In this document: in pieces, positions 1-5,876 of the stretch
Layout of the letters: every line of letters starts with the position of its first letter
Position numbering within the stretch: position 1 is the first letter of the stretch
Translations under genes and position numbers: made by a program
IMG/VR virus record: IMGVR_UViG_3300023496_000090
Span: 1-5,876 of that record
Length of the DNA stretch: 5,876 nucleotides
Direction: 5' to 3' (one strand)
Source: a virus
Notes under the pieces: model-generated
Seen by the model: the letters and a program-made list of their open reading frames with translations, nothing else
Told to the model about the DNA's origin: nothing
The model's database searches: none

Positions 1-55
1 ACTTTTCGCATGATTTCACCTGTTTTTACTATCATGCCTGGTACGTAGTCATCAT
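1..55. repeat. Terminal redundancy, left copy, identical to 5822..5876; marks a circular 5,821-nt genome
   Basis: ACTTTTCGCATGATTTCACCTGTTTTTACTATCATGCCTGGTACGTAGTCATCAT occurs at 1-55 and again, base for base, at 5822-5876. The minus-strand reading frame runs across this junction without a stop. Confidence 0.95.
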
Positions 56-323
56 CATACGTTAGTGTTATAAACCATACTTCTTCCTTCGGATAGTTTC
101 GTGCTTCCAGCTCTATGCGTGTTGTCCAGTCCTCTCGTTGTCTTATTCTGCATCCTATACATTGTCCGCATGGTATTAGCATGACTTTTGGATTATACAT
201 TAAATCTTCATATTTTAGCTGTTTCCCATTTAGCTGTGAAAAGCGGGCGAGTGTATATACTCGTCCGCTTTGCTCTCTGTCATTTGGGTTGTACAGCCTG
301 ATTAATGGCTTGTAACAACTCAT
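1..323 (-). CDS. Replication initiation protein VP4 (HUH rolling-circle endonuclease), N-terminal part; continues at 5821..5125 across the circular junction
   Basis: Hand translation of the minus strand from ATG 323..321 gives [96 protein letters not shown]. This joins in frame to MIVKTGE... of the 5125..5856 ORF. There is an in-frame stop upstream at 335..333. It carries the CGxCxGCR cysteine cluster and RCR motif 1 (FITLTY) typical of microvirus VP4. The ORF track missed it because it runs off the window edge. Confidence 0.9.
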
Positions 324-1204
324 CTTAGATAATCACCCGGCTTTCTTTTTTGACCGTAGTTCCCTGTTTTGTCCTGCATTGGGTTGTTCGGTTTGTTTCC
401 TATTTTGTTACTGCCTGCTGCTTTTTTGCTCATTTTATCGGTTTCTTTTTCGATTGTTTCATCTGTTTTGTTTCCGATGTTGGTTAGTGCTTTCTGTAGG
501 CCGTATGGACTTAGATGTGTTTCACTTAGCATCTGATTCCAGCTTTGTGATGCATTATACCAATCTGATTTACTCCAGCTCGTGCTGCTGTATGAGTTTG
601 GAACAAATCCGCCGCTTCTGCTGATTCCTAGTGCGCTGCTGCTTGCTAGTCCCATACTTGCCCCGCTGATTGTTGCTGCTGAGCCTCCCGGTGTGCTCGC
701 TCCACCGTTTGCAAATGCTAGAATTGGGTTTATACCTGCTTTTTTCATGTCTTCAACGGTTCTTTGGTATGCTGTGCTGCTCATTCTTTCTTGGAATTCT
801 CTGTTTGCTAGTGCTTCGGCGCTGTTATAATTCATTGCGGCTGTGTTTTCGATGTGGTTGTAAATGCCTTGTGTGATGGCCTGCATCGTGTTGTATCCCA
901 TCTGTTGCAGCATGCTTTTTTGGTTGTATTTTTGCTGTGCTATGCCTTCTGCACTTTGGTATCCGTATGCTTGTTGCAAATATTTTGCGATTTGTTCATC
1001 GTTTGTTCCTGATTGACTTCCGCTTACAGATGCTCCACCGCCTTGACTTACACTTTCGCCGCTACTTTGACCTTTTCCTTCATTTCCCCAACCGCCGAAA
1101 TTGCCAGCAATGTTTTTTGCGGCGCTTGTTATGCTTCCGATACTTGATGCAACATTGCCAAGTACGTTTACTCCTTTTAGAATTGCTCCCCATGGAATTG
1201 CCAT
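320..1204 (-). CDS. VP2 minor capsid / DNA pilot protein (294 aa)
   Basis: It sits immediately after the capsid gene. It has a hydrophobic N-terminus, a Gly/Ser-rich low-complexity stretch, and the conserved core [31 protein letters not shown] that I recognise from microvirus VP2/pilot proteins. Its TGA stop (322..320) overlaps the VP4 ATG (323..321) as ATGA. Confidence 0.85.
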
Positions 1205-1212
1205 TTGAAAAT

Positions 1213-1232
1213 AGCCGGGTTTTGGCCCGGCT
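1213..1232 (-). terminator. GC-rich hairpin between VP1 and VP2: candidate partial intrinsic terminator and/or a structure bringing the SD close to the VP2 start
   Basis: The minus strand reads TAA AGAAAGGAGGA AGCCGGG CCAAAA CCCGGCT ATTTTCAA ATG. That is a 7-bp stem (5 G:C, 1 C:G, 1 A:T), a 6-nt loop, then ATTTT. Confidence 0.5.
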
Positions 1233-1243
1233 TCCTCCTTTCT

Positions 1244-2917
1244 TTACAGTTTTTCCAGACCCGGCACGCTATACAGCGGCATGCAGCGAGTTGTTTTGTT
1301 CATTACTCGGATTGCACCGAAGAACTGCGGTTCATTTTGTTCGATTAGTGTCCGTGCGATTTCGGTTTTTCCTTCTTTCATCCATTCTTGGCTGAGTGTT
1401 GGCACGGTGTCGTAGTTGTCCGCATAGTGCCAGAAGTCCAGTGTTCCGTTTGCATTGCTTCGCATTTTGCCGCTTACACGGTTCGGTTTCATGCGATAGT
1501 CTGCCCAAGCTTCCTGATAGCCGAAAATTTCATCATCTGTGCTTTTGCCTGTCAGCATGATTTCCTTCTTCTTTACAGGCTGTTCGCCGATGTTTGCGAA
1601 CTGCGGGAAATAGTAGTCTAATCGGTCGCTTCGGCTCCAAAATCGTTCAAGTCCCTGCTGGTAGCTGTGGTCGTGACGTACACACATAACACCAATTACA
1701 AAGCCGTGTTCCTCAAAGCTCTTTGTAAAGGTACTTTCATTGATAGGAGTTACTGACATTGCGCCAGTTTCGCCGATAGGCGTTCCGTTGTTTGCTCCCT
1801 GGCCGCTGGTCTGTACGATTTGGTTCATGTTGACGTGATACCGTCCACCGCCTAGGTATTCCGGAATCTGAACAGTTTTGTCACTGATGCTTACGCCAAA
1901 CAGCGCCCGCACCTGCTCACGGTATCTGCTGCCGCCACGTGCCAGCGCTTCATAATAGTGCTGAACTGCAAAGGCTTGGCGTAACTGGTTAATTGTTGTG
2001 GCTTCAATGCTTGATAAATTTGCTCCAATGTAGGTTAGCAGCATTTTGTCTCCGAGTGTGTTTTTTCCTACCACTTCGGTTGGCCTTTGTGCTCCTGCTT
2101 CCATTTGGCCGAACTCGTTGTTAAAGTATATGCTTCCAAACCATGGGTCTGTTAGTTTTTCGTCGCTGTATAATTGTACAGGTGCATTTCCGTTTAGTGC
2201 AATTGTCACTTCCGGTCCTCGCTGCGGATACGGTAGGCATGAGCTGAAATAGTCGTGGAATCGGTTTACCGGTAAGCAGTATCCTCCTACGTGTGCGTTT
2301 GCCAAGATTTTTTCTTCTGTTACTTCACTTTCATTTCCACTTCCTGCTCGATATTCTTCGTCTTCGTCTCCGGTGTTTAATACTGCTGGGTTTCCCACAT
2401 TTTGGTCTCTGAAAAATTCATTCCAGATTTTTACGTATGCTCTAATTGGAAGTGCGTTGATTTCGATTCTTCCTGTTTTTCCGGTTTGGATTACTTTTGT
2501 TGGTACGCCCATGTGGTCCAAAATTGTGTTTTCGTCCGGGTATCCTCTTGTAGCTCCCCCTTCTTCATTTTCGATTATGATTTTGGGTACTTTGTATGTT
2601 TTCGTTGGAATCCACGGTGTATCATCTGCTTCGCCCATGAAGCGTTTGAAGTTGTCCCACAGGATACGGTTCGGACAGTAGAAGTAATAGAAGTCGATGT
2701 ATGCATCGTCCATTACAGGATATTTTGGCGTTGTCATTCGGATGATTGCCGCTGTATCCACGTTGAATGTGTCGCCCGGTAATACTTCATCAACGTAAAA
2801 CGGAACCAGCTTGCCTGCATCGAAGGTTGTGAGTATGTTTTGGTCTCGTTTGAAACGTGTTCGGCTTACGTGAGTTTCTGGTACACTGTTAAAGTGTCTC
2901 TCATTATTCCTGTTCAT
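1244..2917 (-). CDS. VP1 major capsid protein (F-protein family, 557 aa)
   Basis: It is the largest ORF. The N-terminus, RHFNSVPETHVSRTRFKRDQNILTTFDAGKLVPFYVDEVLPGDTF, matches the conserved microvirus major-capsid N-terminal signature. The Shine-Dalgarno is AGGAGAAGAAGA-ATG. Confidence 0.95.
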   Translation of the reverse strand: MNRNNERHFNSVPETHVSRTRFKRDQNILTTFDAGKLVPFYVDEVLPGDTFNVDTAAIIRMTTPKYPVMDDAYIDFYYFYCPNRILWDNFKRFMGEADDTPWIPTKTYKVPKIIIENEEGGATRGYPDENTILDHMGVPTKVIQTGKTGRIEINALPIRAYVKIWNEFFRDQNVGNPAVLNTGDEDEEYRAGSGNESEVTEEKILANAHVGGYCLPVNRFHDYFSSCLPYPQRGPEVTIALNGNAPVQLYSDEKLTDPWFGSIYFNNEFGQMEAGAQRPTEVVGKNTLGDKMLLTYIGANLSSIEATTINQLRQAFAVQHYYEALARGGSRYREQVRALFGVSISDKTVQIPEYLGGGRYHVNMNQIVQTSGQGANNGTPIGETGAMSVTPINESTFTKSFEEHGFVIGVMCVRHDHSYQQGLERFWSRSDRLDYYFPQFANIGEQPVKKKEIMLTGKSTDDEIFGYQEAWADYRMKPNRVSGKMRSNANGTLDFWHYADNYDTVPTLSQEWMKEGKTEIARTLIEQNEPQFFGAIRVMNKTTRCMPLYSVPGLEKL

Positions 2918-3299
2918 TCTTCTTCTCCTGTTCCTTTGACTCGTTTGTTGTGCTTTCCTTCATCTGCTGCAGCTTCATCTTGTTGACTTGTGCTGTTGCT
3001 ATCATTGCGTGATACTCGTGAATGTTGGTTGGCCACTCCGTGATGTCTAAGGTTTCGTCTGTTTTTGCGCTGTCCATCAGACTTTTAGCAAACTCTGGGT
3101 CGAAACTTGCTTTTCGGACGATATTTTTAATATCACATTCGTCTGCATAGCTTTCGATTTCTGCTTGAATGTCAATTGGCTCAGTTTCGATTAACTTCTT
3201 TTTGCCTTTTTCGTCTTTGCTCCATACGTATTGTTTTCTCAGTTTTTCGCCTGGATTTGAAAAGAAGGGCTTGCGCCCTTCCTCATATCGTTTATTCAT
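2904..3299 (-). CDS. VP3-like internal scaffolding protein (131 aa, start trimmed from the 191-aa track ORF)
   Basis: The internal ATG at 3299..3297 is preceded by GGGAGGGTAAAGCAC and overlaps the upstream ORF's stop (ATGAATAA). The product MNKRYEEGRKPFF...ESYADECDIKNIVRKASF... contains the ECDI-N-IV motif I associate with gokushovirus-type VP3 scaffolds. The acidic C-terminus overlaps the VP1 start by 14 nt. Confidence 0.7.
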   Translation of the reverse strand: MNKRYEEGRKPFFSNPGEKLRKQYVWSKDEKGKKKLIETEPIDIQAEIESYADECDIKNIVRKASFDPEFAKSLMDSAKTDETLDITEWPTNIHEYHAMIATAQVNKMKLQQMKESTTNESKEQEKKNEQE

Positions 3300-3534
3300 G
3301 TGCTTTACCCTCCCACACTTTCTCCGGTTCGATGCTCTGAAACTCTCCGGTTTCATCGTTGAAGTCTGCGATGTGGTAGCTCTTGTAGTCTTCGGGGCTC
3401 TGTCCAAGGAACGTTTTATTGTCTTCTGCCATAATTTTGCACATTCGTGCGAAGGTTTCGTCGCTCTTGCTCTCGCCAATGTAGCAGTAGCTCTTTGCTA
3501 CGCTGTCGTAGATGCCGTAGTAATTGTGAATCAT
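3292..3534 (-). CDS. Small non-structural protein, VP5/ORF5-like (80 aa)
   Basis: It has a strong SD (TAAAGGAGAAAAAC-ATG). The pattern YGIYDSVAKSY...ETFARM...SPEDYKSYHIADFNDETGEF resembles the conserved YD-K-..Y / PEDY / FD..TG pattern of the small ORF5-type proteins of gokushovirus-like phages. That resemblance is recalled from memory and not searched. Confidence 0.6.
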   Translation of the reverse strand: MIHNYYGIYDSVAKSYCYIGESKSDETFARMCKIMAEDNKTFLGQSPEDYKSYHIADFNDETGEFQSIEPEKVWEGKAHE

Positions 3535-3545
3535 GTTTTTCTCCT

Positions 3546-3647
3546 TTACAGTCGGATGCCGCCCCTCATGGGTTTCTGGCTTAGGTTGATACTCTTCGTT
3601 TTGCGTGCCGTCACGTTGAACATGCGCTTGTCAGTTTTCATCGGCAT
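3546..3647 (-). CDS. Small highly basic protein (33 aa), candidate J/ORF8-like DNA-condensing packaging protein
   Basis: It is absent from the ORF track because it is under 60 aa. Hand translation gives MPMKTDKRMFNVTARKTKSINLSQKPMRGGIRL, with 9 K/R against 1 D. It fills the otherwise empty 120-nt gap between the 73-aa and 80-aa ORFs. The C-terminal RGG-R-hydrophobic ending resembles small basic proteins of SpV4/gokushovirus-type phages. The SD is weak, and the start could instead be the second ATG at 3641. Confidence 0.6.
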   Translation of the reverse strand: MPMKTDKRMFNVTARKTKSINLSQKPMRGGIRL

Positions 3648-3654
3648 TCTCTGT

Positions 3655-3876
3655 CTATGCTTCATTGCTGTACTCCCTTCGGATTAGTTCTAACTGGATG
3701 TCGTTCGCCCATGATTTCATTATCCAGATTCTGTCAATGATTTTATGAGCTTCTTCTATGTCTGAAATTTTCTTCATCAACTTGTATTCGTTTTCGATTT
3801 TGTGGTATAAATTATCCACTTCCAGCCTTAAATCTTTTTCGGTCTGGTCTCTGACGTTCCATGTCTTGTGTAACAT
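3655..3876 (-). CDS. Hypothetical protein (73 aa), predicted helical, no recognisable family
   Basis: The ATG is preceded by AAAGGAGTAAAGACG. It is on the same strand as its neighbours and tightly packed with them. The sequence is rich in charged residues in a heptad-like pattern. Confidence 0.6.
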   Translation of the reverse strand: MLHKTWNVRDQTEKDLRLEVDNLYHKIENEYKLMKKISDIEEAHKIIDRIWIMKSWANDIQLELIRREYSNEA

Positions 3877-3881
3877 CGTCT

Positions 3882-3986
3882 TTACTCCTTTTCCTTTAGG
3901 ATGTGGTAAATCTCGTCCAGCTTCTCAAGTACTTTTTTAATCATCTGGACCGCTTCCCGTAGGTCTTTGACCTTAATCAGTGCCAT
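3882..3986 (-). CDS. Hypothetical small protein (34 aa), amphipathic helix
   Basis: It is absent from the ORF track. The ATG at 3986..3984 lies 3 nt after the peptidase stop, with AAGGGGGTGTAACCA upstream. The TAA at 3884..3882 lies 5 nt before the next ATG. Translation: MALIKVKDLREAVQMIKKVLEKLDEIYHILKEKE. It fills the gap exactly. Confidence 0.5.
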   Translation of the reverse strand: MALIKVKDLREAVQMIKKVLEKLDEIYHILKEKE

Positions 3987-3989
3987 TGG

Positions 3990-4373
3990 TTACACCCCCT
4001 TTCTGTATCGTTCTTCACGTACGTCCACGTGTGTAAAGTTTGTGTATCTGATTACTCCGCCCTGTTCCATGGTACTGTCTGCGTATTTTGCAACTTCTCT
4101 GCTGTTGTGTCCTTTCACTACGATGTCTGCTGCCATTCCTTTGCAGTGGTATGAATTTGGCGCTCCGTTTACTTTGCTGTTCCAGCTTGGTGTTCTGTAT
4201 CCGCTGTTTATGATGACTGGTGCGTTGAAATGGTTTCTGATTTTTTCCAGTGTGTCAAGTAGTTCGGTTGCAATCAGTATTCCATCGGTTTTGTCTTTGC
4301 ATTGAAACTCCTTTGCTTTGAAGTGCTCGCTTACTTTTCCGAAGTCTGCTTTTACATAGTTCACGTGTTTCAT
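3990..4373 (-). CDS. Zinc D,D- or L,D-peptidase of the M15 family (127 aa), putative endolysin
   Basis: It carries the signature SGYRTPSWNSKVNGAPNSYHCKGMAADI...FTHVDV, that is SGYR...N...S-H-x-x-G-x-A-x-D...H-x-D. The expected zinc ligands are H76, D83 and H115. An upstream EF-C motif (KEFQC) is typical of the family. The SD is GGAAAGGAAACCGC-ATG. Confidence 0.85.
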   Translation of the reverse strand: MKHVNYVKADFGKVSEHFKAKEFQCKDKTDGILIATELLDTLEKIRNHFNAPVIINSGYRTPSWNSKVNGAPNSYHCKGMAADIVVKGHNSREVAKYADSTMEQGGVIRYTNFTHVDVREERYRKGV

Positions 4374-4433
4374 GCGGTTTCCTTTCCGTCGTGCGGAGCG
4401 CGGCTATTTTTTTTCATTGTCAGATTAACATAA

Positions 4434-4460
4434 AAACCCGGAGTTGTCAACTCCGGGTTT
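4434..4460 (-). terminator. Rho-independent terminator between the 60-aa ORF and the peptidase gene
   Basis: The minus strand reads AAACCCGGAGTT GAC AACTCCGGGTTT followed by TTATGTT. It is a perfect 12-bp stem with a 3-nt loop running into a 5-T stretch, and it starts 3 nt after the upstream stop codon. Confidence 0.75.
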
Positions 4461-4463
4461 GGT

Positions 4464-4646
4464 TTATTCCTTTTCGGTGAAATACGTTTCTACTAATTCT
4501 ACTTTTCGTAGGCTGTACAGTCCTGGATGCTGGTTTGCGTAGTCTGCTGCTTTTCGTTTTGCACTTTTTGGTTCTTCGTTTAGTATCAGTACCGTGGTCA
4601 TGCTGTCGTCATTTTCAAGTTTTCTGAGTTCGTACGTGTGCTTCAT
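4464..4646 (-). CDS. Hypothetical protein (60 aa; start moved to ATG 4646 from the track's GTG 4655)
   Basis: It is the first gene after the promoter. AGAAAGGAAGGTGCAAAAG-ATG gives good SD spacing for the ATG. The GTG at 4655 lies inside the SD itself. Product: MKHTYELRKLENDDSMTTVLILNEEPKSAKRKAADYANQHPGLYSLRKVELVETYFTEKE. I recognise no family. Confidence 0.55.
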   Translation of the reverse strand: MKHTYELRKLENDDSMTTVLILNEEPKSAKRKAADYANQHPGLYSLRKVELVETYFTEKE

Positions 4647-4673
4647 CTTTTGCACCTTCCTTTCTCTGATTAT

Positions 4674-4702
4674 ATTTTATCATATTTTTCTGATTTTGTC
4701 AA
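4674..4702 (-). promoter_or_regulatory. Near-consensus sigma70/sigmaA-type promoter driving the minus-strand gene train
   Basis: The minus strand reads TTGACA (4702..4697), then a 17-nt spacer AAATCAGAAAAATATGA, then TAAAAT (4679..4674). The spacer ends in TGA, giving an extended -10 (TGnTAAAAT). It lies about 30 nt upstream of the first SD/ATG. Confidence 0.7.
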
Positions 4703-4731
4703 GATTTTTTTAGAAGAATTTTTCATTATAT

Positions 4732-4778
4732 GGCCGCTGTTGCGCGCTACGCGGCGCAACTTTCAGCGAAGCGCGGCC
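4732..4778. other. G+C-rich nested inverted repeats (structured ssDNA element)
   Basis: GGCCGC (4732-4737) pairs with GCGGCC (4773-4778). An inner hairpin pairs GTTGCGC (4739-4745) with GCGCAAC (4754-4760) around an 8-nt loop. The block is embedded in A+T-rich non-coding DNA. Confidence 0.6.
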
Positions 4779-4813
4779 GTAGCTTTCCCGTTCGATTCCG
4801 GATTGCTTCTATT

Positions 4814-4980
4814 AGTTTTCAACATTTTCAACATAGTTTTCAACATTTCAACATTGTTAAACTTTAACACAACAGAGTGTTTCAACTTTTCAACAAGTTT
4901 TCAACATAGTTTTCAACATACAATTATCCTTATTTATCACGTGATAACGTAGAATTATTCATACTTTCAACTTTTCCACA
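4814..4980 (+). repeat. Same-orientation array of TTTTCAACA(T) repeats (iteron-like, DnaA-box-like), ending in a TTTTCCACA box
   Basis: Exact TTTTCAACA occurs at 4816, 4825, 4837, 4887, 4898 and 4910. The 12-mer AGTTTTCAACAT occurs at 4814, 4835, 4896 and 4908. Degenerate copies are ATTTCAACA at 4845, TTTAACACA at 4863, GTTTCAACT at 4879 and CTTTCAACT at 4964. TTTTCCACA lies at 4972-4980. Spacing within the clusters is 9-12 nt. Confidence 0.9.
4934..4947. promoter_or_regulatory. Perfect 14-bp palindrome TTATCACGTGATAA (candidate dimeric-protein operator)
   Basis: The sequence equals its own reverse complement. It is located inside the repeat array region of the intergenic region. Confidence 0.5.
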
Positions 4981-4985
4981 TACCC

Positions 4986-5000
4986 TACTACTACTACTAC
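4986..5000. repeat. (TAC)5 trinucleotide microsatellite
   Basis: TACTACTACTACTAC, read directly from the sequence; it is non-coding. Confidence 0.9.
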
Positions 5001-5016
5001 AACAAGTTATATTATA

Positions 5017-5067
5017 ATACGTGCGCACGCGTGCGCGTGTAGCTTTTCGCGTGCACGTGTGTGCGCG
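5017..5067. other. Two perfectly alternating purine-pyrimidine, G+C-rich tracts (25 nt and 20 nt) containing a 14-bp perfect palindrome
   Basis: 5017-5041 (ATACGTGCGCACGCGTGCGCGTGTA) and 5048-5067 (CGCGTGCACGTGTGTGCGCG) alternate R/Y without a break. GCGCACGCGTGCGC (5023-5036) is a perfect palindrome. It extends to a 24-nt near-palindrome (5018-5041) if two G:T pairs are allowed. Confidence 0.85.
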
Positions 5068-5081
5068 ATTAGAATAATAAT

Positions 5082-5111
5082 GCCCAGTACCTTACTTGAT
5101 AGGTACTGGGC
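5082..5111 (-). terminator. Perfect 11-bp-stem hairpin directly downstream of the VP4 stop (terminator candidate; alternatively an origin stem-loop)
   Basis: GCCCAGTACCT (5082-5092) pairs perfectly with AGGTACTGGGC (5101-5111) around an 8-nt loop. On the minus strand the hairpin starts 13 nt after the VP4 TAA (5127..5125). It is followed by ATTATTATTCT, which is T-rich but not a clean T-run. Confidence 0.55.
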
Positions 5112-5124
5112 TAGGTGACACCGA

Positions 5125-5876
5125 TTATAAAATACCGCTCTTTTTTGTTTGTTTTTTCGTGACACGCTCTTTGGTCTCTAAGACGGTTTTATAATCTTGA
5201 TCCTCTAACTGTAGTCTCTTCTGCTGCATTGCGTTTTTTTGTCGGTTCTGTTTAATTCTCCACAATCTTTGTGGGTTTTCTGCTTCCATTTGTTTTTCAT
5301 AGTATCTTGGTATTTGTGCTCTTTTTCCGTTGGTACACTGAATGTAGCCTTGTCGCCAGATTTCTGCCTTGTGCTCTTGATAGTATTTATCTCCGAGCCC
5401 CGGCTTTAAGCTCATGCAAGCGAATGGTTTTGTTTGCCCTAGCTTGTAGTATGCGTTAGCTTTTTCACCGTTTATTTCGTACATTTTTTTTGTAACGTAC
5501 CCTGCAACATATCTATATGTTTCTGGTACTGCTTGTGCTATCTGGATTTGACCCATTCCCCAGAGGTCTGCTAGCCATTTACTGGTATAGTATCCGTTGT
5601 GGTGAATCTTGTATAGATTTTCTAGGTCTGTCGGTTTCCAGCCATATAGTATCATGTGGTAATGTGGTCTTGCTGTTTGTTCTCCGTACTCGCCCGCTAT
5701 AAAATAGCGTAATTTGCCCCTATAAGCCTTTCTGAGACGTTTTATAAACTTTTGAATATCTTCATACAGCAATATTTGAACACTGCTAGGCTGCTTCTCT
5801 CCCGGTTTCCACGTGTATTGTACTTTTCGCATGATTTCACCTGTTTTTACTATCATGCCTGGTACGTAGTCATCAT
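5125..5876 (-). CDS. Replication initiation protein VP4, C-terminal part (unique sequence 5125..5821; 5822..5876 duplicates 1..55)
   Basis: The HUH motif in ARPHYHMILYG has its H-Y-H codons at 5664..5656. The double-tyrosine catalytic motif is YVAGYVTKK, with the Tyr codons at 5511..5509 and 5499..5497, comparable to YVAKYVNK of the phiX174 A protein. The track's Met at 5856 is internal; the true start is at 323. Confidence 0.92.
   Translation of the reverse strand, partial: DDYVPGMIVKTGEIMRKVQYTWKPGEKQPSSVQILLYEDIQKFIKRLRKAYRGKLRYFIAGEYGEQTARPHYHMILYGWKPTDLENLYKIHHNGYYTSKWLADLWGMGQIQIAQAVPETYRYVAGYVTKKMYEINGEKANAYYKLGQTKPFACMSLKPGLGDKYYQEHKAEIWRQGYIQCTNGKRAQIPRYYEKQMEAENPQRLWRIKQNRQKNAMQQKRLQLEDQDYKTVLETKERVTKKQTKKSGIL

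Follow-up and report, generated by a model that had tools for sequence, protein, structure and literature searches.

A conserved M15 peptidase gene downstream of a terminator-type hairpin in a gut gokushovirus: a likely lysis enzyme in a clade with no detectable holin

The peptidase locus

The DNA analysed here is IMG/VR virus record IMGVR_UViG_3300023496_000090, positions 1 to 5,876 (the whole stretch of 5,876 nucleotides, or nt, hereafter called the window), and the system in question is a gene for a small M15 zinc peptidase together with the hairpin, candidate promoter, and leader that precede it. The window represents a circular assembly of 5821 nt, with an assembly overlap of 55 nt (nt 1-55 are identical to 5822-5876); it has 43% GC overall and a coding strand that contains 39% A and 18% T. 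The recognisable genes, based on Pfam and PHROG profile matches, all lie on the minus strand. The closest megablast match shares 76-78% identity across half the length of the genome, and the megablast neighbours are Gokushovirinae of the gut, recovered from faeces of humans, pigs, and monkeys; the genome is that of a gut gokushovirus. The features of the locus, in coordinates of the window, are the following, with open reading frame abbreviated as ORF and Shine-Dalgarno sequence as SD:

3990..4373, minus strand: predicted single-domain M15A (Pfam Peptidase_M15_3) zinc peptidoglycan peptidase of 127 amino acids (aa), identified by profile and motifs
4374..4421, minus strand: leader with an A8 run and the SD AAGGA (4384..4380), read from the sequence
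4370..4417, minus strand: 15-codon mini-ORF (MKKNSRAPHDGKETA) that contains the A8 run and overlaps the peptidase start codon in ATGA
4422..4450, minus strand: candidate promoter P2, with the -35 box TTGACA (4450..4445), a 17-nt spacer, TG (4430..4429), and the -10 box TAATCT (4427..4422)
4434..4460, minus strand: intrinsic-terminator-type hairpin, identified by consensus scan, folding, and covariation

Family, zinc site, and predicted fold of the peptidase

The 127-aa protein scores 90.2 bits against Peptidase_M15_3 (PF08291) in a Pfam profile search (gathering cut-off 23.2; E = 1.2e-25), with full-length coverage of the profile (residues 17-117 on profile positions 2-108 of 108), and matches PHROG 894, 'endolysin', at 9e-38. 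The M15 assignment made in a first-pass annotation of the sequence is thus borne out, and the profile search it had proposed, against M15 families and phage endolysins, matched both. Each feature that this annotation listed at the locus is found in the sequence at the coordinates it gave. Two motifs carry the predicted active site, S74-Y-H76-C-K-G79-M-A81-A-D83 and F113-T-H115-V-D117, and H76, D83, and H115, which the first-pass annotation had already picked out as zinc ligands, match the motif pattern and are invariant, together with S57-G58-Y59-R60, G79, A81, and D117, in 165 of 165 aligned homologues (an alignment that includes 44 IMG/VR loci and 120 database clusters). The motif pattern and the roles of the residues were taken from LysPM1 of a Proteus phage, an experimentally verified Zn-dependent endolysin of 116 aa with a single M15_3 domain, the triad H63/D70/H104, R47, and D106 (PMC13461873). 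By this correspondence, H76/D83/H115 would form the zinc triad, D117 would be the catalytic residue, and R60 would bind the substrate carboxylate.

The sole PDB sequence match of the peptidase in a phmmer search is 1LBU; the alignment spans SGYR...SYHxxGxAAD and places NSGYR60T opposite NGGFR138S, where R138 is the substrate-carboxylate-binding Arg of 1LBU. An AlphaFold model built from a shallow alignment reached a predicted local distance difference test (pLDDT) score of 77, with the loop 60-77 below 50, and its top Foldseek matches were 1LBU, followed by VanXY, VanY, and Hedgehog-N, at a template-modelling score (TM) of 0.45 for the best. These matches are consistent with a Hedgehog/DD-peptidase (LAS) fold but are not independent proof of it. 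N-terminally extended peptidases of 142-176 aa, encountered among the homologues, are gene-caller artefacts, whose start was called either at the TTG within the -35 box or at an ATG that shares bases with the -10 box.

Conservation, spread, and earlier reports

Among 80 IMG/VR genomes picked solely by the similarity of their VP1 capsid protein (68-84% identity), the peptidase was found in 77, always on the coding strand. No contig of 5.3 kb or longer (74 in total) is without it, and the three genomes where it is missing are represented by short contigs (4.2-5.1 kb). The ratio of nonsynonymous to synonymous substitution rates (dN/dS) was 0.06-0.3 against 22 microviral relatives. That is, the peptidase is fixed in a capsid-defined gokushovirus clade and evolves under purifying selection. 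The first-pass annotation had allowed that the zinc ligands might be lost in close homologues or that the gene might be a host-derived passenger absent from related phages; we found the ligands kept and the gene not missing from relatives.

Within the clade, the peptidases (L067-L143) are 39-92% identical, with a median of 47%, i.e., far below the VP1 identity, and the gene has at least four types of upstream junction with mosaic flanks. In genomes that are otherwise collinear, the peptidase region is thus a hot spot of recombination, and this diversity fits the recombinational exchange of microvirus peptidase regions described previously (Kirchberger et al. 2022). Identity of the window peptidase is 45-73% (aa) to deposited genomes and up to 97% to IMG/VR contigs. 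Outside the microviruses, homologues annotated as endolysins occur in tailed phages of Vibrio, Proteus, Klebsiella, and Faecalibacterium, and a 44% identical homologue lies on a phage-like contig of a Christensenellaceae metagenome-assembled genome with a holin-like transmembrane ORF nearby.

It is important to note that the M15 peptidase of gut microviruses has been known for more than ten years, and that the gene described here is an ordinary member of a known group; the novelty implied by the first-pass annotation was overstated. M15_3 peptidases were reported in five Gokushovirinae and six Alpavirinae from human samples, with closest homologues in prophage holin-endolysin cassettes, in contrast to phiX174 E; they were read as endolysins derived from such cassettes (Roux et al. 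2012, PMC3394797). Peptidases have since been listed among the lysis-associated accessory genes of microviruses (Kirchberger et al. 2022), and the same was reported for marine Occultatumvirinae isolates (Zhang et al. 2024). GenBank records of gokushoviruses routinely carry a gene annotated as 'peptidase M15' or 'similar to peptidase' between VP4 and VP5/VP3.

Search for a holin or an export signal

To look for membrane-spanning segments, we scanned all sense-strand ORFs of at least 25 aa in all three frames, overprinted ones included, for a 19-residue Kyte-Doolittle mean of at least 1.6. No sense-strand ORF of the window reaches this value, and thus the window offers no candidate for a holin or for an amurin of the phiX174 E type. 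The maximum is 0.31 for the peptidase and 1.2 for the N-terminus of VP2, the highest of any real protein. The peptidase has neither a signal peptide nor a signal-arrest-release (SAR) segment: its N-terminus (MKHVNYVKADFGKVSEHFKAKEF) is hydrophilic, and the maximum of 0.31 applies to the whole protein. There was also no spanin-like anchor or signal segment in the hydropathy scan of the window and the clade, in which lipobox motifs were not searched separately. Across 73 complete genomes of the clade, 5 of 2127 sense ORFs pass the threshold, and all five are artefacts of two classes. Hence, the statement of the first-pass annotation that the gene has no signal peptide, transmembrane segment, or accompanying holin is upheld by the scans of both the window and the 73 genomes, and the absence of a holin holds clade-wide. 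In phiX174, lysis depends on E, an overprinted inhibitor of MraY, and no counterpart of E was found in the window or in the 73 genomes.

The two artefact classes are the following. An alternative-frame ORF within VP1 (L008, L017, L020, L022, and L028) occurs in few genomes, and its version in the window (25 aa, VLCVYVTTTATS) is not hydrophobic. ORF52 (5165..5007, minus strand), which overlaps the VP4 stop codon, is both recurrent and hydrophobic (Kyte-Doolittle 1.56 in the window and 2.95 in L022) and was considered as a holin. However, its sequence overlaps that of a conserved non-coding hairpin and of an ATT-repeat tract; in the window, the hydrophobic core comprises 9 residues; the 'IIILI' core is the translation of ATT repeats; and indels of 1 nt and of other lengths not divisible by three change the reading frame from relative to relative, which marks the ORF as non-coding. 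Long hydrophobic ORFs are also present on the plus strand, antisense to genes (e.g., an ORF of 112 aa opposite the peptidase, 3967-4305 (+)); these arise because the coding strand is A-rich and its complement T-rich, and are not membrane proteins.

The hairpin, the promoter, and the leader

Three further features frame the peptidase gene and its upstream region:

4674..4702, minus strand: candidate promoter P1 (TTGACA-17-TAAAAT with TG) before ORF60, 11/12 in the consensus scan
4464..4646, minus strand: ORF60, next gene upstream of the peptidase; 63 aa in the ORF list, with a GTG start at 4655, whereas its homologues start at the ATG at 4646
3882..3986, minus strand: ORF34, with its start 3 nt past the peptidase stop codon

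The hairpin (4460..4434) reads AAACCCGGAG-TTGACAA-CTCCGGGTTT and continues into a T-run; its 12-bp stem includes a 7-bp GC core, is followed by UUUUUAUGUU, and begins 3 nt past the stop codon of ORF60. The folding free energy is -18.1 kcal/mol (z = -4.94), and none of 200 shuffles folds equally well. Nine distinct relatives share the hairpin position, and in an ungapped alignment anchored on TTGACA, 91.7% of the cells pair, compared with 30-59% once the 3' partner is shifted. Six of the 12 pairs change on both sides (e.g., the stem variants CCCGGAG/CTCCGGG, ACCGGAG/CTCCGGT, GACGGAG/CTCCGTC, and CCGGGG/CCCCGG), and the observed covariation score is reached by no shuffle. The hairpin is a real conserved element, and the GC stem and T-run just past a stop codon, along with the folding and covariation data, substantiate the terminator annotated at 4434-4460 in the first pass and point to activity in transcription termination.

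The hairpin/promoter module is not universal in the clade. ORF60 directly adjoins the peptidase gene in some relatives, with the peptidase SD supplied by the final ORF60 codons (GAAAAGGAG), while others have a different ORF before the peptidase, or the peptidase directly after the non-coding region. In one relative (L004), ORF60 and the 5' arm of the hairpin are lost, with the junction exactly at the -35 box, such that the non-coding region is joined to TTGACA. A DNA-pattern search of IMG/VR for the module returned eight matches; four were microviruses already in our set, and the other four, on contigs of 37-113 kb, have no T-run or -10 box and were judged to be chance matches.

The -35 box of P2 sits in the loop of the hairpin, and its spacer consists of the 3' arm of the hairpin and the T-run. 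Across 11 aligned relatives, TTGACA, TG, and T-A---T of the -10 box are invariant; relatives have TATAAT, TACAAT, or TATAGT as the -10 box and score 10-12/12, including a perfect TTGACA-17-TATAAT in L005. More generally, across 45 related loci (209 kb), promoter sites scoring at least 11/12 number 54 on the coding strand and one on the opposite strand. The 300 nt before the peptidase hold 38 of the 54, and 18 loci have such a site no more than 100 nt before it. These patterns suggest that P2 is a conserved promoter position of the sigma-70 type, of which the window carries a degraded copy, and that its transcript would start near 4415/4414, given the usual 7-nt spacing to the -10 box. The first-pass annotation had regarded the site as a possible weak secondary promoter within the terminator; the comparative support turned out to be stronger than it supposed, while the -10 box of the window itself is indeed degraded. 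Sites homologous to P1 are found in relatives at -243 to -341 relative to the peptidase. A promoter-like TTGACA-17-TATACT (11/12) also occurs inside the peptidase gene, at +301 to +304, in one subclade (L003, L030-L032, L034, L035, L037, L039, and L040), where it is formed by the codons for ILDKGG...RYTN; the window encodes TMEQGG instead and does not have the site.

Downstream of P2, the leader of the window shows no significant structure (fold z = +0.58), and the SD AAGGA stands 6 nt before the peptidase ATG. A GC-rich leader hairpin seen in one relative (GCCGCGC-TTC-GCGCGGC, L006) was rejected, with z of -1.8 at best and uncompensated mismatches in L004, L005, L007, and the window. Every gene downstream of the peptidase has its own SD (that of ORF34, GGGGGTG, falls within the 3' end of the peptidase gene), and a homologue of ORF34, 34 aa long, was called in one relative (L060). 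The consensus scan gave no further strong promoter or terminator from the peptidase to VP1. Because the gap to ORF34 is only 3 nt, with no terminator between, P2 most likely drives the whole downstream block; that is, P2 probably serves all of these genes and not the peptidase alone, and the idea that the peptidase has an insulated expression module of its own is not supported.

The mini-ORF is present as described in the first-pass annotation (15 codons at 4417..4370, with the A8 run and the ATGA overlap), but the coupled or delayed translation suggested for it there finds no support. Four of the five relatives that share the leader (L004-L007) do not have its ATG, which arises from a 4-nt insertion specific to the window and from substitutions directly past the -10 box. 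The counterpart ATG of another relative (L059) consists of the last two bases of TATAAT plus a G, and in two database homologues (P0023 and P0003) the corresponding ATG is in frame with the peptidase, such that both frame and position vary. There is no SD before the ATG at 4417, in contrast to the AAGGA of the peptidase, and since the P2 transcript would start near 4415/4414, the mini-ORF ATG would lie at or upstream of the transcript start. We judge the mini-ORF to be a chance feature.

Comparison with characterised systems

The peptidases of Gokushovirinae and Alpavirinae described previously (PMC3394797) share with the window gene the Pfam family (M15_3), the subfamily, the habitat, the proposed role, and the absence of a holin. 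The GenBank records KX513868, KX513864, KX513876, and KX513877 ('peptidase M15', Human gut gokushovirus) and MG945xxx (Microviridae, 'similar to peptidase') have the gene at the same VP4-VP5/VP3 position; relative to KX513868 and many others, the window differs only in sequence and in the upstream junction (ORF60 and the terminator/promoter hairpin), where those genomes have other neighbours. Among characterised enzymes, the M15A endolysins LysPM1 (Proteus phage Homer), ST79, and Spp001 have the same single-domain Peptidase_M15_3 architecture of ~115-130 aa (PMC13461873). LysPM1 and the window peptidase have SxHxxGxAxD and (W/F)xH in common, with H63/D70/H104 corresponding to H76/D83/H115 and with equivalent Arg and Asp residues, and the related Proteus phage endolysins are about 44-45% identical to the window peptidase (tblastn). 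The difference is one of setting: enzymes of the LysPM1 type belong to tailed double-stranded DNA phages with separate membrane-disrupting lysis proteins, while the predicted microviral enzyme is encoded in a 5.8-kb single-stranded DNA phage that has none. 1LBU, the Zn D-Ala-D-Ala carboxypeptidase of Streptomyces albus G and the MEROPS M15A type enzyme, has the zinc motif and the substrate-binding Arg in common with the window peptidase. It differs in being a bacterial enzyme that is secreted and has two domains, one of them peptidoglycan-binding, and is only ~21% identical over the fold alignment.

As to its predicted transcription signals, the genome resembles phiX174, another microvirus that uses one coding strand, with both sigma-70 promoters and hairpin terminators in the gaps between genes. 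The transcription units of phiX174 are defined by the promoters pA, pB, and pD and by leaky intercistronic terminators. The window departs from phiX174 in that the -35 box lies within the terminator loop and the U-tract doubles as the promoter spacer.

Function of the enzyme

We favor the hypothesis, which we consider likely, that the protein cleaves peptidoglycan as a soluble Zn-dependent peptidase, acts as the lysis enzyme (endolysin) of the clade, and is encoded by the first gene of a P2-driven late block; both the muralytic activity and the role in lysis are suggested by the family assignment and the conserved residues. Under this hypothesis, a small (14 kDa) soluble M15A endolysin would have become fixed in a clade of animal- and human-gut gokushoviruses after its gene was acquired from the lysis cassettes of tailed phages, without the accompanying holin. 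The block transcribed from P2 would run in the order peptidase - small ORFs - VP5 - VP3 - VP1 - VP2 - VP4, and the terminator would halt P1 transcripts that come through ORF60 and probably also transcripts that have gone once round the circle. With the -10 box of P2 decayed to TAATCT, expression of the peptidase in this genome would probably depend on the weakened P2 together with read-through of the terminator, and the peptidase would be translated from its own SD, with the mini-ORF having no part in it. Several points weigh against this hypothesis. As the phage offers no holin and the enzyme no signal peptide or SAR domain, the canonical endolysin route is closed, which leaves the lysis role mechanistically incomplete; the structure model is only moderate (pLDDT 77) and the fold matches are weak (best E = 2e-3); and P2 of the window, with TAATCT, scores 9/12, below the threshold of the standard consensus scan. 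In addition, a search of bacterial genomes for the host gave no prophage copy and no close homologue, the nearest cellular one being 44% identical, and our literature searches gave no biochemical or genetic test of any microviral M15 peptidase.

Alternatively, the peptidase might never need to leave the cytoplasm and, in the manner of VanX or VanXY, hydrolyse wall precursors there (D-Ala-D-Ala, UDP-MurNAc-pentapeptide, or the stem peptides of lipid II), starving wall synthesis and thereby lysing growing cells without export. The absence of a holin, signal peptide, or transmembrane ORF from the window and the 73 genomes fits such a mechanism; the M15 clan does contain cytoplasmic precursor hydrolases, with VanXY, VanY, and VanX among the top fold matches; and the invariant R60, aligned with the carboxylate-binding Arg of 1LBU, suits recognition of a free C-terminus. 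Other microviruses also lyse their hosts through blocked precursor flow, and phiX174 E, Qbeta A2, and M Lys are all examples of such precursor-blocking 'protein antibiotic' lysis. However, the closest characterised relatives (the M15A enzymes LysPM1, ST79, and Spp64) degrade the mature wall from without, the homologues in tailed phages are accompanied by holins, and the peptidase has no sequence feature specific to VanX-type dipeptidases, its best match being the secreted 1LBU; we thus regard precursor hydrolysis as quite improbable. A scenario in which the holin was lost and the M15 enzyme, staying in the cytoplasm, lyses by acting on UDP-MurNAc-pentapeptide or lipid II, whose D-Ala-D-Ala end or stem peptide it would remove or cleave, seems to us marginally less probable still. 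If true, cytoplasmic precursor hydrolysis would represent the first enzymatic 'protein antibiotic' lysis, converging on phiX174 E, Qbeta A2, and M Lys. The missing export route for late lysis is also compatible with an enzyme carried by the virion that opens the wall locally at DNA delivery and has no role in lysis, and the homologue on the Christensenellaceae phage-like contig adjoins large structural-looking ORFs. Yet the gokushovirus virion is a T=1 shell built from VP1 together with VP2, for which, to our knowledge, no report of an accessory enzyme exists; the gene is not part of the morphogenesis block VP5-VP3-VP1-VP2; the members of PHROG 894 are annotated as endolysins in tailed phages; and all 127 aa are accounted for by the catalytic domain, which leaves no extra domain for attachment to the capsid. 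An entry enzyme is, in our view, about as improbable as precursor hydrolysis.

A separate question is whether the hairpin at 4460..4434 is mainly an element of the single-stranded DNA genome, such as a signal for complementary-strand priming or a recombination junction, with the T-run being merely the promoter spacer. The packaged strand carries the hairpin in this sense, the breakpoint of L004 falls exactly at the -35 box, and the flanks of the peptidase are mosaic, all of which agree with a function at the DNA level. On the other hand, many viable-looking relatives do without the hairpin, which is thus not essential for replication; wherever it is present, it stands directly past the ORF60 stop codon and is followed by the T-run, i.e., it has the layout of a terminator; and the far more conserved hairpin past VP4 (below) is a better candidate for a replication element. 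A primarily DNA-level role is therefore unlikely, albeit less so than the alternatives for the enzyme above, and we retain termination as the favored function of the hairpin.

What is new here relative to the earlier reports is small, namely the clade-wide fixation of the peptidase with transmembrane proteins absent and the covarying terminator that holds the -35 box of the next promoter. The combination of a fixed peptidase (74/74) with no transmembrane protein (73 genomes) sharpens the question of how a soluble wall hydrolase reaches the wall in a 5.8-kb phage. In addition, a -35 box within the loop of a covarying terminator represents a compact regulatory element, relatively well supported, in a group of phages whose transcription has hardly been studied.

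Other genes and non-coding features of the genome

The remaining genes, all on the minus strand, are as follows:

from the peptidase to VP5, minus strand: small ORFs, from the ORF list
3534..3292, minus strand: VP5, Phage_ORF5
about 3299..2904, minus strand: VP3 scaffold, Chlamy_scaf
2917..1244, minus strand: VP1 capsid, Pfam Phage_F at 3e-135
1204..320, minus strand: VP2 pilot, PHROG 8742
ATG at 323 through the circle junction to 5125, minus strand: VP4 replication initiator, 339 aa, from the sequence

The 'VP4' ORF of 243 aa in the linear ORF list is a truncated form of the 339-aa VP4. ORF60 has 25 homologous clusters, all on microvirus-sized contigs, with a conserved alignment, and its model is a soluble beta-beta-alpha-beta fold (pLDDT 93) for which there was no Pfam, PHROG, or PDB match (best fold E = 0.39). 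It is an accessory gene, present in 9 of the 80 genomes of the clade; an export chaperone resembling Gp1 of Ms6 was considered for it and found no support, as the gene is missing from the other 71.

Two further hairpins stand out among the non-coding features:

5082-5111, minus strand: hairpin GCCCAGTACC-TATCAAGTAA-GGTACTGGGC, directly past the VP4 stop codon (-21.8 kcal/mol, z = -6.1)
1214-1231, minus strand: small GC hairpin GCCGGG-CCAAAA-CCCGGC followed by TATTTTC, in the VP1-VP2 gap, with AAAGGAGG just upstream

The hairpin past VP4 is kept in distant relatives with an invariant loop and compensatory stems (GCCTAG/CTAGGC, GCCAAG/CTTGGC, and GTCCAG/CTGGAC). The reverse complement of its loop has ACTTGATA, which we take to resemble the nick-site core of the phiX174 origin, here on the non-coding strand. 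The hairpin is a candidate for the replication origin, a recognition site of VP4, or the main terminator. The hairpin between VP1 and VP2, not listed by the terminator consensus scan, has the look of a leaky terminator or stabiliser between cistrons, as in phiX174.

The non-coding region between VP4 and ORF60 contains, at 4817-4971 (minus strand), nine copies of GTTGAAA(A), vs. 1.2 expected genome-wide, and none of 200 shuffles reaches 10; the copies look iteron-like, and the same repeats occur in relatives. Finally, at about 4985-5075 (minus strand) there is an alternating purine-pyrimidine tract (CGCGCACACACGTGCACGCG ... CACGCGCACGCGTGCGCACG), followed by TATAATATAAC and a (TAG)5 run, which is conserved in relatives with many indels.

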